Positions 10,574 through 14,939 of a stretch of DNA of 19,021 bases are shown here, piece by piece. The position numbers and the translations under genes were made by a program. The stretch comes from a virus (taxonomy: Duplodnaviria > Heunggongvirae > Uroviricota > Caudoviricetes). Position 1 is the stretch's first letter, and each line of letters begins with the position of its first letter. The notes beneath the pieces were generated by a model. That model did not search any database and was not told the DNA's origin. It was given only the letters and a program-made list of their open reading frames with translations. Where the stretch lies: the IMG/VR virus record IMGVR_UViG_2529292882_000013; one strand, given 5' to 3'.

Positions 10574-12970
10574 ATGCACGAAAAGAACATCGCCCTGCTT
10601 TGTGATGAAGCCGACCGACTTTTGCAACTGAACATTAATCTGCTCCGGCAAATGGTTGAGGAGCCAGATGTGTTATCTGACAGTAAGAACGAAAACAGAC
10701 TGCTTTTTGATAAACAGAAAGCACTGAAAAGAATTGAGGAGCTGGAGGGCGAACAAATCAAAACCGCCCGCAGGGAGATGGTGCTGGCTGTTGTCGGCAC
10801 GATGAAAGCAGGCAAATCAACCACCATCAACGCCATTGTGGGGCAGGAAATTCTGCCTAACCGTAACCGCCCCATGACCTCTGTACCGACGCTCATCCGC
10901 CACGTTCCCGGAAAAACTGAGCCGGTTCTCCATCTGGAACATATTCAGCCTGTCCGCAATTTATTAATCACACTGCAGGAAAAACTCGCCACCCCGGCAG
11001 GACAGCAGGTCGCACAGACCCTGCAGCAAACCGGGGATACCCGCGAACTGCTGGATATTCTGACGGATGATGGCTGGCTCAAAAATGAATACCACGGGGA
11101 GGAGGAAATCTTTACCGGACTGGCATCGTTAAACGATCTGGTTCGTCTTGCTGCGGCAATGGGGACTGAATTTCCTTTTGATGAATACGCAGAAGTGCAG
11201 AAACTGCCGGTGATCGACGTGGAATTCAGCCATCTGGTGGGGATGGATGCATGCCAGGGAACACTCACACTGCTGGATACCCCCGGCCCTAATGAGGCCG
11301 GACAACCGCAGATGGAAGTGATGATGCGGGATCAACTGCAGAAAGCCTCTGCGGTTCTGGCTGTGATGGATTACACCCAGATGAACTCAAAAGCGGATGA
11401 AGACGTCCGTAAAGAGCTTAATGCCATTGCTGACGTATCAGCCGGCCGCCTGTTTGTACTGGTCAATAAATTTGATGAGAAAGACCGCAATGGCGATGGG
11501 GCAGATGCCGTACGCCAGAAAGTTCCGGCAATGCTGAACAGCGATGTGCTGCCCGCCTCCCGCGTTTATCCCGGATCCTCACGCCAGGCATACCTGGCTA
11601 ACCGTGCGCTTCATGAGTTACGGAAAAACGGAACCCTTCCTGTTGATGAAGCCTGGGTCGATGATTTTATCAGAGGTGCCTTCGGTTGCATGAAAAAAGA
11701 ATACGTCTGTAAAGACAGTGAACTGGCAACTGAAGGGGCGACAGACCTGTGGGAAGGCTCACTTATCGATCAACTGATAACGGAAGTCATACAGAGCTCA
11801 CATTCCAGAGCTGCGGCACTGGCGGTTGACTCTGCCGCCGCAAAACTGATGCAGAATGCAGAAAATATCAGTGAATACCTGTTGTTACGCCATCAGGGGC
11901 TACAGCAAAGCATTCAGTCACTGCAGTCGCATATCACCAGCCTGCTTGCGGATATCCGGGAAATCGCGGACTGTCAGGAGCAGATGACCACTGATGTCAG
12001 AATGGCCATGGAGGAGATCGATACTAAAACCCGGGAATTACTGACGGGGGTCTGCACCTCACTGGAAGAGGAGCTGAATGACTATTTCAGAAGCGGTAAA
12101 CGCAAAGAACAGCAAATGCTGGAGGAAGAAGACGCAGAACAACGAAGGTCTCAGTCCGGATTATGGGGGAAAATTTCTCAATGGTCCGGTATCAACAACC
12201 AGGGCCGGGAGGATTACAGGAAACGAGATTTTGCCCCGGACAGCCCCGAAATAAAATTCAGTGATCGCAGGGAAGCCCTTGAACTGATGACGCAAATCGA
12301 ATCGACCGTGACCAGCCTGCACCGTGAGGCTGAAGCACAGTTCCGGCCTGAGCTGGAGAAAATCGTCAGCGGGATTGAAACAGGTTTTCGTGGCACGGCC
12401 CTGTACGCCACAGAAAACATTGCCGGTCGCATCAATGCCCGCCTGGAGGATGAGGGCTTTACCGTAAAAATCAGTTTTCCGGCAGTCAGCCAGTTACAGA
12501 CCCGGCTCGCGGTAAAAATAAATCTGAGTGCGCTTATGGAGGAAAGAACGGAGACCGTCACCCGTCGCCGTCGGCAGAGTGGCGTATGGGGAACCGTTTG
12601 TCGATGGTTTGGCACCAGTGACCTGGGCTGGGAAAACTATGACGAGGATGTGAGTCGCAGCGTGATCAATATCAACAAGGTCAGAGAGGAAGTTATGTCA
12701 CTGACCCGGGCATATTTCGGGGAGCTGCAGGCATCCATTGAGCAGGATATTAACCAGCCCGTCCGCCAGGAAATCGATGCCTTTTTCTGCGCATTCAGGG
12801 AGAAAGTTGAACAACTGCGTAACACGCTGATTCAGAGCTCTGAAGATCATAAACGCGATCAGCAGGCGCAGGAACGACTTACCGGGCGACTTCAGGCATT
12901 AAATGAAAGGGTTCCTGAGCTCATTACTGACAGTAAGGCGCTGAGGGAAGAGCTGGAGACAATGCTGTGA
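10574..12970 (+). CDS. Dynamin-like large GTPase (798 aa) with long helical C-terminal region
   Basis: RBS AGGAAGG 8 nt upstream; G1 GTMKAGKST (around residues 76-83), G3 LLDTPGPNE, G4 LVNKFDE; remainder is charged and helix-prone. Confidence 0.8.
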   Translation: MHEKNIALLCDEADRLLQLNINLLRQMVEEPDVLSDSKNENRLLFDKQKALKRIEELEGEQIKTARREMVLAVVGTMKAGKSTTINAIVGQEILPNRNRPMTSVPTLIRHVPGKTEPVLHLEHIQPVRNLLITLQEKLATPAGQQVAQTLQQTGDTRELLDILTDDGWLKNEYHGEEEIFTGLASLNDLVRLAAAMGTEFPFDEYAEVQKLPVIDVEFSHLVGMDACQGTLTLLDTPGPNEAGQPQMEVMMRDQLQKASAVLAVMDYTQMNSKADEDVRKELNAIADVSAGRLFVLVNKFDEKDRNGDGADAVRQKVPAMLNSDVLPASRVYPGSSRQAYLANRALHELRKNGTLPVDEAWVDDFIRGAFGCMKKEYVCKDSELATEGATDLWEGSLIDQLITEVIQSSHSRAAALAVDSAAAKLMQNAENISEYLLLRHQGLQQSIQSLQSHITSLLADIREIADCQEQMTTDVRMAMEEIDTKTRELLTGVCTSLEEELNDYFRSGKRKEQQMLEEEDAEQRRSQSGLWGKISQWSGINNQGREDYRKRDFAPDSPEIKFSDRREALELMTQIESTVTSLHREAEAQFRPELEKIVSGIETGFRGTALYATENIAGRINARLEDEGFTVKISFPAVSQLQTRLAVKINLSALMEERTETVTRRRRQSGVWGTVCRWFGTSDLGWENYDEDVSRSVININKVREEVMSLTRAYFGELQASIEQDINQPVRQEIDAFFCAFREKVEQLRNTLIQSSEDHKRDQQAQERLTGRLQALNERVPELITDSKALREELETML

Positions 12971-13872
12971 CTTCACCATTTATTCAACAAATTGCTGATA
13001 ACCGGGTATGTCAGGTACTCACCTGTCTTCCTGAAAAATTTGTGGTTGATTTCGCAAACGGAATCGATGTTGCACAGGAGCATATCCGCACGGCCGGAGA
13101 GCGCACGTTCTTCCGGCGTTTAAAAGAGGGGCTGACCGGCGAAGGCGCTGCACGGCAGAATGCCATCAATGCGTCGCTTGCACAGGGCGTTGAGGCGTCC
13201 CTGCGCTGGCTGACGGAGATGACAACGTCACTTGCCACCACAAACTACGCGATTACCCAGGTAAACGACAGGGTCAGTTCACTGGTCAGTGATACAGCCA
13301 GGCTGGCGCATTATTCCGCAGATACGCGGGAGCAGTTACTCACCCTGGCCGATCAGGTTCACCATAAACTGAATCATCTTGAAGAAAAACTCCACCGTGT
13401 TGACCAGGTTCAGCGGGCGCAGTTACATCTTGAGCAGATATTCTCATGGTGGAGCGCCGGGCGATATGCGTCATTTTCCCCTGCCGGACGTTGTTATGTG
13501 GCACTTGAAGAGCTTCGCTGGGGCGCGTTTGGTGATGTGATACGTCAGAGCGAAACAGGCCAGGTTAACCAGCTACTGGATATTCTCAGACATAAAGCAT
13601 TAACGCAGATGGCACAGGAGAGTGGCGGTAGTGCAACCGTGCGTCTGAACACTCTGGACTGGCTTGGTGGTCAGGGCCGGGAGCAGGCAGATAACGAGTG
13701 GCATGACGCGATTAACTGGCTGGGAGACTGGTGCAGTGAAGAGCAGCATCCGGTGATCTGGTCAACCACGCAGGCTGCAGAACACTTACCGGTTCGCATG
13801 CCTCGCCTCTGCTCTGCAGAACGCCTCTCTGAAAGTATGGTCGATGAAATATTTCAGAAGGGGGCTGCATGA
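12967..13872 (+). CDS. Hypothetical helical/coiled-coil protein (301 aa), translationally coupled middle gene of the operon
   Basis: GTG start overlaps the upstream stop (GTGA) and its stop overlaps the next start (ATGA); no recognisable catalytic motif. Confidence 0.6.
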   Translation: MTSPFIQQIADNRVCQVLTCLPEKFVVDFANGIDVAQEHIRTAGERTFFRRLKEGLTGEGAARQNAINASLAQGVEASLRWLTEMTTSLATTNYAITQVNDRVSSLVSDTARLAHYSADTREQLLTLADQVHHKLNHLEEKLHRVDQVQRAQLHLEQIFSWWSAGRYASFSPAGRCYVALEELRWGAFGDVIRQSETGQVNQLLDILRHKALTQMAQESGGSATVRLNTLDWLGGQGREQADNEWHDAINWLGDWCSEEQHPVIWSTTQAAEHLPVRMPRLCSAERLSESMVDEIFQKGAA

Positions 13873-14939
13873 GTACAGAAATGAAAACGGGGCTGGTGCT
13901 GTCCGGTGGCGGGGCGGTGGGCGCTTATCAGGCGGGAGTGGTTAAGGCACTGGCAGAGTGTGGTACACAGATCAGCATGGTTTCAGGGGCCAGCATTGGC
14001 GCATTCAATGGTGCCATTATCGCGGCCTCTCCCGATCTGTCAGAAGCTGCCGTACGCCTGGAGGCGCTCTGGGATCATCTGGGGAATAATCAGGTGCTGT
14101 CGGTAAACAGATTGGTTTACTTTTCATTGCTGAAAAAATTGTTCCAGGCAATGAACCTCTGCCAGATCCCCGGACGTGCAGGAGCACTGCTTACGACGCT
14201 TCTTCGCCATATATCGACAATCAACGGGTTTGACAATCTGATGGCTCAGCCGTTGTTGTCAGATGAGCCCCTGACAGCGCTGATGGATCATTATCTTGAT
14301 ACTGATGCTCTGGCAGACGGGCTACCGCTGTATGTGTCGCTGTACCCCACAGAAGGGGGCATGCAGGATATTATTGACTGCATTCGTGCTGAACTGGGTG
14401 TCGGAACCACGAAAAACGCCGTTTTTCAGCATATCCAGAGCCTGCCCCGCGGACAGCAGAAAGAGGCTCTGCTTGCGTCAGCCGCGCTGCCCCTGCTGTT
14501 CCGTCCCCGTGAGGTTCAGGGGACAATGTTCGGTGATGGTGGTATGGGAGGATGGCGAAATATGCAGGGAAATACCCCTGTGACGCCTCTGGTCGATGCC
14601 GGATGCAATATGGTGATTGTGACGCATCTGAGTGACGGTTCTTTATGGGATCGCCAGGCTTTTCCGGACACCACAATCCTTGAGATCCGTCCCCGGAAAA
14701 GGCTGAAATATGCAGGTGATGGTGGCAACAGCGGCGGTCTGCTCAGTTTTACATCGGCACATACCGACGCCTGGCGTCAGCAGGGCTATGAAGACACGAT
14801 GCTGGCGATGGAGCATATCCGGAAACCGCTGGCAGCACGTCAGGCACTGACCCGGTCAGAGGCGGTATTGCAGAAAAGCCTGGATATAACGGAAGAGGCA
14901 GATTTGGCACTGAGAAACGCGATGGCCCGGATTAAATAA
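13869..14939 (+). CDS. Patatin-like phospholipase (356 aa)
   Basis: Oxyanion-hole motif LSGGGAVGAYQAG (residues 12-23), GxSxG nucleophile motif GASIG with Ser42 (codon 13992..13994), downstream DGG motif (MFGDGGM); ATGA start/stop overlap with the upstream gene. Confidence 0.8.
   Translation: MSTEMKTGLVLSGGGAVGAYQAGVVKALAECGTQISMVSGASIGAFNGAIIAASPDLSEAAVRLEALWDHLGNNQVLSVNRLVYFSLLKKLFQAMNLCQIPGRAGALLTTLLRHISTINGFDNLMAQPLLSDEPLTALMDHYLDTDALADGLPLYVSLYPTEGGMQDIIDCIRAELGVGTTKNAVFQHIQSLPRGQQKEALLASAALPLLFRPREVQGTMFGDGGMGGWRNMQGNTPVTPLVDAGCNMVIVTHLSDGSLWDRQAFPDTTILEIRPRKRLKYAGDGGNSGGLLSFTSAHTDAWRQQGYEDTMLAMEHIRKPLAARQALTRSEAVLQKSLDITEEADLALRNAMARIK

Follow-up and report, generated by a model that had tools for sequence, protein, structure and literature searches.

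What does a large dynamin-like GTPase do when it is encoded together with a lipase on mobile DNA? This question is raised by a 19,021-nt stretch recorded as viral (IMG/VR record IMGVR_UViG_2529292882_000013; the whole stretch is called the window here), in which three genes at positions 10574–14939 encode, in this order, a dynamin-like GTPase, a helical partner and a patatin-like phospholipase. We found that, judging by sequence, the RdcA/RdcB GTPase partner system has a paralogous copy in genes 1 and 2, to which a patatin gene is joined, and, by analogy with that system, we assign a probability of roughly 0.5 to the reading that a GTP-state switch controls the cis-encoded phospholipase at the membrane. 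The trio is already annotated, is common in Escherichia coli and has been remarked upon once; its function is what we infer here.

Three overlapping genes encode a GTPase, an RdcB-family partner and a lipase

The genes of the trio are as follows.

10574–12970, plus strand: gene 1, ATG start, 798 aa, dynamin-like GTPase, paralog of RdcA (YjdA/CrfC)
12967–13872, plus strand: gene 2, GTG start, 301 aa, RdcB (YjcZ)-family partner, all-alpha
13869–14939, plus strand: gene 3, ATG start, 356 aa, patatin-like phospholipase with a Ser42/Asp223 dyad

A first-pass annotation made from the letters alone had placed these genes and their stop/start overlaps, and both the list of open reading frames (ORFs) and our reading of the sequence agree with it: genes 1 and 2 share GTGA at 12967–12970, and genes 2 and 3 share ATGA at 13869–13872. 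Shine-Dalgarno-like GGAG and GGGGG stretches lie 5–9 nt upstream of the two internal starts (genes 2 and 3), and AGGAAGG precedes the ATG of gene 1. The dynamin G1/G3/G4 and patatin Ser-Asp motifs named in that annotation are likewise present in the translations, in line with the Pfam matches given below, and the coordinates that it gave for the P-loop lysine (Lys81, at 10814) and for the patatin nucleophile (Ser42, at 13992–13994) are right.

Gene 1 matches Dynamin_N (2.8e-18) and carries the motifs GTMKAGK81S (G1), RPMT102 (G2), DTPG (G3) and NKFD (G4), all conserved across orthologs, in a G domain spanning approximately residues 57–330; the remainder of the protein is helical. It aligns end to end with RdcA of E. 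coli K-12 (33% identity, E = 9e-121), with Lys81 and Thr102 (GTMKAGK81ST, NRNRPMT102) opposite RdcA K82 and T103 and both residues conserved in orthologs. The similarity is uneven, however, reaching 52% identity in the G domain and only 22% in the C-terminal half, and the match to the NCBIfam CrfC model (NF007368; 1.2e-166, 556 bits) falls below the equivalog cut-off of 1146. Because of this score, the 33% overall identity and the 22% in the C-terminal half, we regard gene 1 as a paralog and not an ortholog of RdcA. The only sequence match of gene 1 with a solved structure, the Nostoc bacterial dynamin-like protein (BDLP; 2j68), covers no more than residues 66–116. No 19-residue window of gene 1 exceeds 1.6 on the Kyte-Doolittle scale (maximum, 1.16), and none of the three trio proteins has a transmembrane-like or hydrophobic signal-like segment. 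A Trp/Gly-rich motif occurs twice in gene 1, at residues ~525–548 (RRSQSGLWGKISQWSG...EDY; window ~12146–12217) and ~667–690 (RRRQSGVWGTVCRWFG...ENY; window ~12572–12643). The second copy is conserved in orthologs (G685) and is also found in RdcA, whereas the segment holding the first copy is missing from RdcA; on sequence grounds, the motif could be a candidate membrane-binding element.

The middle protein had been thought to lack a recognizable domain, but it matches PF13990 (YjcZ-like) at 3.7e-70 (236.8 bits against a cut-off of 27) and is 30% identical to K-12 RdcB (E = 4e-38). Its AlphaFold2 model (predicted local distance difference test score [pLDDT] of 77.8) is all-alpha, with a long helix at 59–163 and a better-defined C-terminal helical domain.

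Gene 3 matches Patatin (PF01734; 3e-24, 86.7 bits against a cut-off of 27.7) and contains the oxyanion motif G13GGAVG18, the nucleophile motif G40-A-S42-I-G44 and the catalytic Asp in D223GG. The corresponding GGGxxG, GxSxG and DGG motifs are invariant in 41 orthologs, and a set of subfamily-specific blocks (DGGxGGW229, QGNTP237, VTHL254, EIRP275 and QGYxDT310) is at least 95% conserved. With these motifs intact, gene 3 is predicted to be a catalytically competent patatin-like phospholipase A. The AlphaFold2 model (pLDDT, 77.3; predicted template modeling score, 0.76) has a patatin core at 1–275, a low-confidence two-helix insert at 82–125 and a 60-residue C-terminal helix at 296–355, and its closest solved structures are PlpD, the effectors CapV and CapE of cyclic-oligonucleotide-based antiphage signaling systems (CBASS), VipD and ExoU (probability, 1.00). 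The profile and structure searches that the first-pass annotation had suggested thus placed gene 1 with the CrfC model, gene 2 with PF13990 and gene 3 near PlpD, CapV and CapE, while for gene 2 no specific structural relative was found in the PDB. The Pfam scan of the trio gave no domain other than those named and hence no secretion domain.

A profile search of 1.84 billion representative proteins returned 363 clusters of the patatin subfamily at E ≤ 1e-30. The full-length E. coli cluster (P0123) has 6999 members, and truncated E. coli patatin ORFs of ~200–260 aa form further clusters (P0137, P0139, P0143, P0146, P0161 and P0181) with hundreds of members each. The truncated ORFs could stem from a lipase gene that often decays, or simply from contig ends.

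The three genes are conserved as a unit across Gamma- and Betaproteobacteria

By megablast of 10400–15000, the trio is present in 2620 of 5426 complete E. coli genomes (48%), in up to five places per genome and nearly always on the chromosome. RefSeq names its products "dynamin family", "diguanylate cyclase regulator RdcB family" and "patatin-like phospholipase family" protein. With gene 2 as the query, 538 relatives were obtained, among which an island-type subfamily (45–67% identity) occurs in many Enterobacterales, in Pseudomonas and in purple sulfur bacteria. For the locus survey we used an alignment of island-type relatives (A1) and one genome per species, kept 80 of 157 confirmed loci, called their ORFs and searched these with the window proteins, which gave 41 island-type and 39 core-type loci.

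All 41 island-type loci have the dynamin, RdcB-like and patatin genes in this order and in the same orientation, with stop and start codons that overlap in most cases, while the core-type loci of Enterobacteriaceae consist of the dynamin/RdcB pair only, the patatin gene being absent in 39/39. Island-type loci come from orders that include Enterobacterales, Chromatiales, Burkholderiales and Nitrosomonadales (Gamma- and Betaproteobacteria). Specifically, they were found in E. albertii, Pantoea, Erwinia, Budvicia, Serratia and many Pseudomonas and Psychrobacter; in Allochromatium, Thiodictyon, Marinospirillum, HdN1, Nitrosomonas, Gallionella and Sideroxydans; in Comamonadaceae, Ottowia, Duganella, Macromonas and Yanghanlia; and in two metagenome-assembled genomes binned to Spirochaetales and Syntrophomonadaceae. 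Since the order, the strand and, mostly, the overlaps recur in 41/41 loci of many genera, the arrangement is not due to chance. Pairwise identities of the trio proteins also correlate with one another (Pearson coefficients of 0.82–0.90 among 34 full-length trios). The neighborhood survey is in line with the earlier expectation that the three genes are used together, and we are highly confident that the trio is one co-inherited unit with its parts as identified.

Two proteins join the products of genes 2 and 3 in a single chain: in P0298 (707 aa) and P0335 (665 aa), a YjcZ domain at the N terminus is followed by a patatin domain at the C terminus. Fusion genes lie directly downstream of one dynamin gene (L088, 81–4410) or of two (L086, 229–6801, where they are in tandem; L087), all three loci being metagenomic and L086 and L087 coming from two sequencing runs. 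A third long protein, P0338, shows a weak profile match to the RdcB-like family in its N-terminal region. Natural fusions of this kind point to a single complex in which the lipase and the RdcB-like protein act together. In K-12, where the dynamin-like GTP sensor RdcA and RdcB activate the diguanylate cyclase DgcE, RdcA binds RdcB as well as the MASE1 domain of DgcE (PMC6510439), and given this binding and the fusions, the simplest arrangement would be a ternary GTPase–adaptor–lipase assembly.

In distance trees, the core RdcA/RdcB pair is nested among the trios

In neighbor-joining trees of the dynamins, with the fusion-type loci (a small outgroup) as the root, the patatin-less core RdcA clade fell inside the diversity of the trios, as sister to the Budvicia/Serratia trios in 200/200 bootstraps, and in no replicate was the trio set monophyletic. 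The RdcB tree is less resolved: 83% of its replicates nest the core clade, and taken alone it did not recover the Budvicia/Serratia sister relation. The parsimonious reading of these sequences is that the trio is ancestral and that the RdcAB pair of Enterobacteriaceae lost the lipase; it is provisional because the trees are distance trees with a small outgroup. The position of the core pair inside the trio clade suggests that its control of DgcE is derived.

Genomic neighborhood of the trio

In Escherichia, the operon occupies the slot between a YeeP-like GTPase gene and DUF932 in CP4-type islands. The window follows this plan, with a frameshifted YeeP-like GTPase on the 5′ side of the trio and DUF932, antirestriction and RadC genes on the 3′ side, and a near-identical RefSeq locus (L001) has the same flanks, with YeeT and YeeU/CbeA annotated farther out; the island slot described in the first-pass annotation is therefore the right one. 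Elsewhere the setting differs. The operon is a stand-alone cassette in Klebsiella, adjoins an integrase and a DUF927 gene in Pseudomonas aestuarii, with a WYL gene upstream, and sits between ileS and lspA in Allochromatium, together with Uma2 and Fic genes.

For 24 loci we scanned the flanks, taking the three closest ORFs to the left and to the right (136 flanking genes); this survey has no background rate, so that any enrichment is qualitative. Pfam matches in the flanks included WYL (7), WCX (5), integrase, PIN, Fic and Eco57I, and PADLOC matches included JukA (3), PDC-S24, SoFic, type I and type IIG restriction-modification, DruE and PDC-S01. GGDEF domains were present in 2 of the 136 genes, in other taxa. 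In Psychrobacter, a type IIG restriction-modification enzyme is encoded directly upstream of the trio (8.5e-283); one Pseudomonas locus has GajB-like and RecD-like helicases nearby and another has mad3. That loci often adjoin defense genes agrees, in this qualitative sense, with the earlier expectation of accessory or defense cargo in mobile or variable DNA.

WYL genes lie co-directionally 5′ of gene 1 in six loci, at distances from 13 bp (Gallionella) to ~2 kb (two Pseudomonas). Upstream WYL/WCX genes were located at the following positions of their loci.

L007: 1561–2577
L012: 373–1272
L014: 2613–3512
L018: 4591–5523
L024: 4340–5419
L030: 3827–4864

This placement resembles that of the WYL regulators of other defense systems, and in those Beta- and Gammaproteobacteria the WYL/WCX genes may be dedicated regulators of the module.

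Typical phage cargo was considered and rejected as a description of the trio, as viral contigs gave 2 close matches only, one of them island DNA beside a Mu-like prophage and the other a contig (L090) with 51% identity.

A proposed GTP-controlled lipase and its alternatives

The first-pass annotation had called the module a candidate undescribed one, a label that is wrong. Our literature searches found neither a functional study nor a named system for the trio, but genes 1 and 2 belong to the characterized RdcA/RdcB family, all three genes carry RefSeq annotation, and the trio was noted among putative defense systems in a 2026 RNA-seq paper on E. coli MP1 (PMC12922286). Its authors reported ~30% identity to the core RdcAB, found no literature link of bacterial dynamins with phospholipases, and described the operon as "up in lysogens" in all conditions, with five genes co-induced. 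The trio genes are also listed on an island, among "membrane modelling" or virulence-island genes, in PMC13182975.

The behavior of the K-12 pair suggests how the trio might work. RdcA K82A, which does not bind GTP, still activates DgcE, and the GTPase-dead T103D is locked off (PMC6510439). A 2026 study showed that a drop in GTP sends RdcA to the membrane, that the C-terminal domain of RdcA binds and activates DgcE under regulation by the G domain, and that RdcB is required for larger assemblies and for activation, (p)ppGpp competing with GTP (PMC13463826). By analogy with RdcA/RdcB and DgcE, the gene 1 GTPase would be nucleotide-bound, cytosolic and off when GTP is high. A drop in GTP or a rise in (p)ppGpp, possibly through phage takeover, energy collapse or starvation, would set the switch in motion, and GTP hydrolysis would free the GTPase to move to the inner membrane. 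There, its diverged C-terminal half and the RdcB-like adaptor would assemble with the patatin lipase and activate it, the lipase taking the place of DgcE. Such a change of target would fit the fact that gene 1 has diverged most in its C-terminal half (22% versus 52% in the G domain). The lipase would then cleave membrane phospholipids, and the stressed or infected cell would most likely stop growing or die, an outcome of the abortive-infection type. We infer the ternary complex, the GTP signal, the activation of the lipase and the defense phenotype alike. From the RdcA mutants (PMC6510439), gene 1 K81A is predicted to be constitutively on rather than null, and T102D to be locked off.

Abortive infection is the leading functional hypothesis because of the mobile, defense-rich context and the structural kinship with CBASS lipases; that the module serves phage defense specifically is a tentative proposal, held with less confidence than the GTP-controlled lipase itself. 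No more certain is the fuller scenario, in which the trio is a widespread anti-phage or abortive-infection system whose GTPase reads guanine nucleotides and, via the RdcB-like adaptor, releases the lipase onto the inner membrane, and RdcA/RdcB is its domesticated descendant, stripped of the lipase and rewired onto DgcE.

Several points weigh against a GTP-controlled defense lipase. The trio is rare in phage contigs, and some of its neighborhoods, such as that of Klebsiella L083, look neutral. The same CP4-type island slot in Escherichia presumably also carries non-defense cargo, e.g., Ag43. The case for defense is one of guilt by association, as no PADLOC v2 model matches. The commonness of truncated patatin ORFs in E. 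coli could mean that the gene is often dispensable or costly. Finally, damage to the membrane, and not GTP, could be the trigger, and the lipase could instead regulate the dynamin, as suggested in PMC12922286.

Among the alternatives to the GTP-controlled lipase, membrane repair or remodeling survives best, and we consider it unlikely. Here the dynamin would act like B. subtilis DynA and mycobacterial IniA, fusing, tubulating or sealing damaged inner membrane, and the patatin would supply lysolipids or clear damaged lipids, so that the cell would be protected from pore-formers or phage lysis and not killed. Gene 1 is indeed a member of the dynamin family whose sole sequence relative of solved structure is the Nostoc BDLP, and the tandem dynamin genes of the distant relative L086 recall classical BDLP pairs; bacterial dynamins are also credited, in work cited in PMC12922286, with membrane surveillance and a delay of phage lysis. 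Against this, the only characterized members of the clade, RdcA and RdcB, form a signaling switch and not a remodeler (PMC13463826), no hydrophobic paddle-like segment was detected in gene 1 (maximum hydropathy, 1.16), and the structural relatives of the patatin include the suicide effectors CapV/CapE and the toxins ExoU/VipD.

We think it improbable that the trio is a second input into cyclic di-GMP or stress signaling, in which the paralogs would act on DgcE or another MASE1 protein and the patatin would be an accessory that provides a lipid signal or tunes the GTPase. The homology that genes 1 and 2 show over their full length with RdcA and RdcB, the RefSeq name of gene 2 ("diguanylate cyclase regulator RdcB family") and the GGDEF domains in 2/136 flanking genes speak for it, but by our own estimate this last count is about the level expected by chance in these genomes, and the half of gene 1 that corresponds to the DgcE-binding part of RdcA is merely 22% identical. 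Moreover, because the patatin is kept in 41/41 loci and is fused to the RdcB-like protein in relatives, it looks like a core component and not an add-on, and the nesting of the core pair within the trio clade suggests that control of DgcE came later.

Equally improbable is island maintenance or another non-phage fitness role (an addiction-like lipase restrained by its partners, or a virulence or colonization factor acting on host or competitor lipids), for which one may cite the CbtA/CbeA toxin-antitoxin and antirestriction genes beside the operon in CP4-type islands, the virulence factors among patatin toxins (ExoU, VipD and PlpD) and the listing in PMC13182975, but which is at odds with the lack of a hydrophobic signal-like segment in the trio proteins and of a secretion domain in the Pfam scan, and with the presence of the module outside CP4-type islands in free-living Gallionella, Sideroxydans, Nitrosomonas and Allochromatium.

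Upstream region and surrounding sequence

Two features lie upstream of gene 1, the promoter candidate overlapping the first repeat unit.

10445–10474, plus strand: sigma-70-like promoter candidate, TTAATA and TATCAT separated by an 18-nt spacer (consensus scan, 9/12 matches)
10457–10512: 18-bp direct repeat ATCGATCGTTACTATCAT, two full units and one 72% unit, with 4 GATC sites in 53 bp

The promoter candidate is weak, because such sites are no commoner in this region than in shuffled sequences. The GATC sites of the repeat are at 10460, 10478, 10496 and 10509, whereas the motif is scarce elsewhere in the window (34 sites versus ~74 expected). Approximately 2458 other E. coli records, nearly all of the remaining E. 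coli copies, have one repeat unit fewer and 3 GATC sites, at −96, −78 and −65, and E. albertii retains all 3 although neighboring bases are substituted. We therefore describe the repeat as a putative Escherichia-specific regulatory element of the operon, and it may be a Dam-dependent ON/OFF switch; if so, the "up in lysogens" state in all conditions (PMC12922286) could be explained as a clonal state and not as phage control. As a general trait of the module the GATC-rich repeat was rejected, since it is absent 5′ of the trio in Pantoea, Erwinia, Budvicia, Serratia, Klebsiella and several non-enteric genera.

Downstream of the trio are the following features.

14956–14980, plus strand: terminator-like hairpin, CACCGCC-TGT-GGTGGTG followed by TTTTT (pattern match)
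15075–15758 and 15774–16184: two ORFs of low GC content (43%) with N-terminal hydrophobic signal-like segments

The hairpin starts 17 nt past the stop codon of gene 3 and is the probable 3′ end of the operon. Neither of the two ORFs has a Pfam match, and both recur in E. coli only; neither E. albertii nor any other genus examined has them, and this restricted recurrence places them outside the module. A five-gene operon including them was rejected as the core unit because of their restriction to E. coli, their low GC content, their signal-like N termini and the intervening hairpin. Read-through from the trio into them is possible in E. coli, since five co-induced genes were reported in PMC12922286, and they may be the two extra co-induced genes of E. 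coli MP1.

The YeeP-like island GTPase gene is split by a frameshift (9428–9703 and 9685–10338) and is likewise annotated as "frameshifted" in L001. Positions 1–8100 are the repressor/transposase end of a Mu-like prophage, inserted in the island 5′ of a gene for a 383-aa hypothetical protein, with these two genes.

4964–6952, minus strand: MuA
7367–7891, plus strand: Mu repressor-like gene

In the IMG/VR contig L089, a Mu-like phage (91–98% identical) joins the island at the equivalent of window position 13122, and given this junction the phage in that strain sits inside the RdcB-like gene.

Significance

If the proposed control is correct, the trio would provide the first example of a lipase effector controlled by a GTP switch of the dynamin family, and it would add a new sensing logic for patatin suicide or defense effectors, in which the guanine-nucleotide state is read by a large GTPase. 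Roughly half of the sequenced E. coli carry the trio, often in multiple copies and including pathogen islands, and an unrecognized module that damages membranes could have consequences for phage therapy, for the biology of islands and for survival under stress. That the core pair is nested suggests that the biofilm regulator RdcA/RdcB arose by domestication of mobile cargo, and the RdcA/RdcB field gains a tractable sister system whose effector is encoded in cis.

Comparison with known systems

In PADLOC-DB v2.0.0, no system matched the locus, gene 2 had no match, and genes 1 and 3 reached no more than 20 bits over partial regions; Eleos or another catalogued defense system was therefore rejected as an identity for the trio, the partial matches being <20 bits. 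Eleos (LeoA/LeoBC), which the first-pass annotation took as the nearest comparison while holding the module to be distinct from it, also has a large bacterial dynamin-like GTPase and also occurs on islands. However, the LeoBC match to gene 1 (8.6e-5, 19.8 bits) covers only residues 29–89 around the P-loop, no LeoA match was found in the trio, and Eleos has neither an RdcB-like protein nor a patatin, so the distinction was sound. The choice of comparison was not, as RdcA/RdcB, which that annotation overlooked, is closer.

The remodeling BDLPs (Nostoc BDLP, B. subtilis DynA and IniA/IniC) share with gene 1 the dynamin G domain and a helical stalk, but the match to BDLP 2j68 is limited to residues 66–116, no paddle was detected in gene 1, and the partner genes are others. 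For the lipase, the likeness is to CapV/CapE of CBASS, which likewise are patatin-fold phospholipases that have a Ser-Asp dyad, and which rank among the best structural matches to gene 3. The concept would be shared as well, i.e., a cytosolic lipase that is off until a nucleotide-related signal arrives and then attacks the cell's own membrane. The trio operon differs in having neither a cGAS/DncV-like nucleotidyltransferase (CD-NTase) cyclase nor a cyclic-nucleotide sensor, and the GTPase and the adaptor would exert the control in place of a small-molecule ligand; the CBASS lipase model NF041079 gives gene 3 only 18.3 bits against a cut-off of 200, and the PADLOC phospholipase effector matches it at 19.8 bits over the N-terminal 60 residues only.

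RdcA/RdcB differs from the trio in several respects. The patatin is encoded in cis in 41/41 island-type loci and absent in 39/39 core-type loci; gene 1 falls short of the NCBIfam equivalog cut-off (556 versus 1146), and its C-terminal half, the target-binding part, is 22% identical; the trio resides on mobile islands, here of the CP4 type, whereas the core pair occupies a conserved phn-proP chromosomal site; and the trio has the wider taxonomic range, with the core pair nested in its clade. Action on the MASE1 domain of DgcE, with the GTP-bound form off and hydrolysis required for activation, is known for K-12 RdcA only. In both systems, however, a dynamin-like GTPase gene is followed by an overlapping YjcZ-family gene, the homology extends over the full length of both proteins (33% and 30%), the P-loop Lys and the switch-I Thr of the GTP switch are conserved, and the proteins are soluble, without transmembrane segments. 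On the sequence comparison, the closest known system is RdcA/RdcB and not Eleos.

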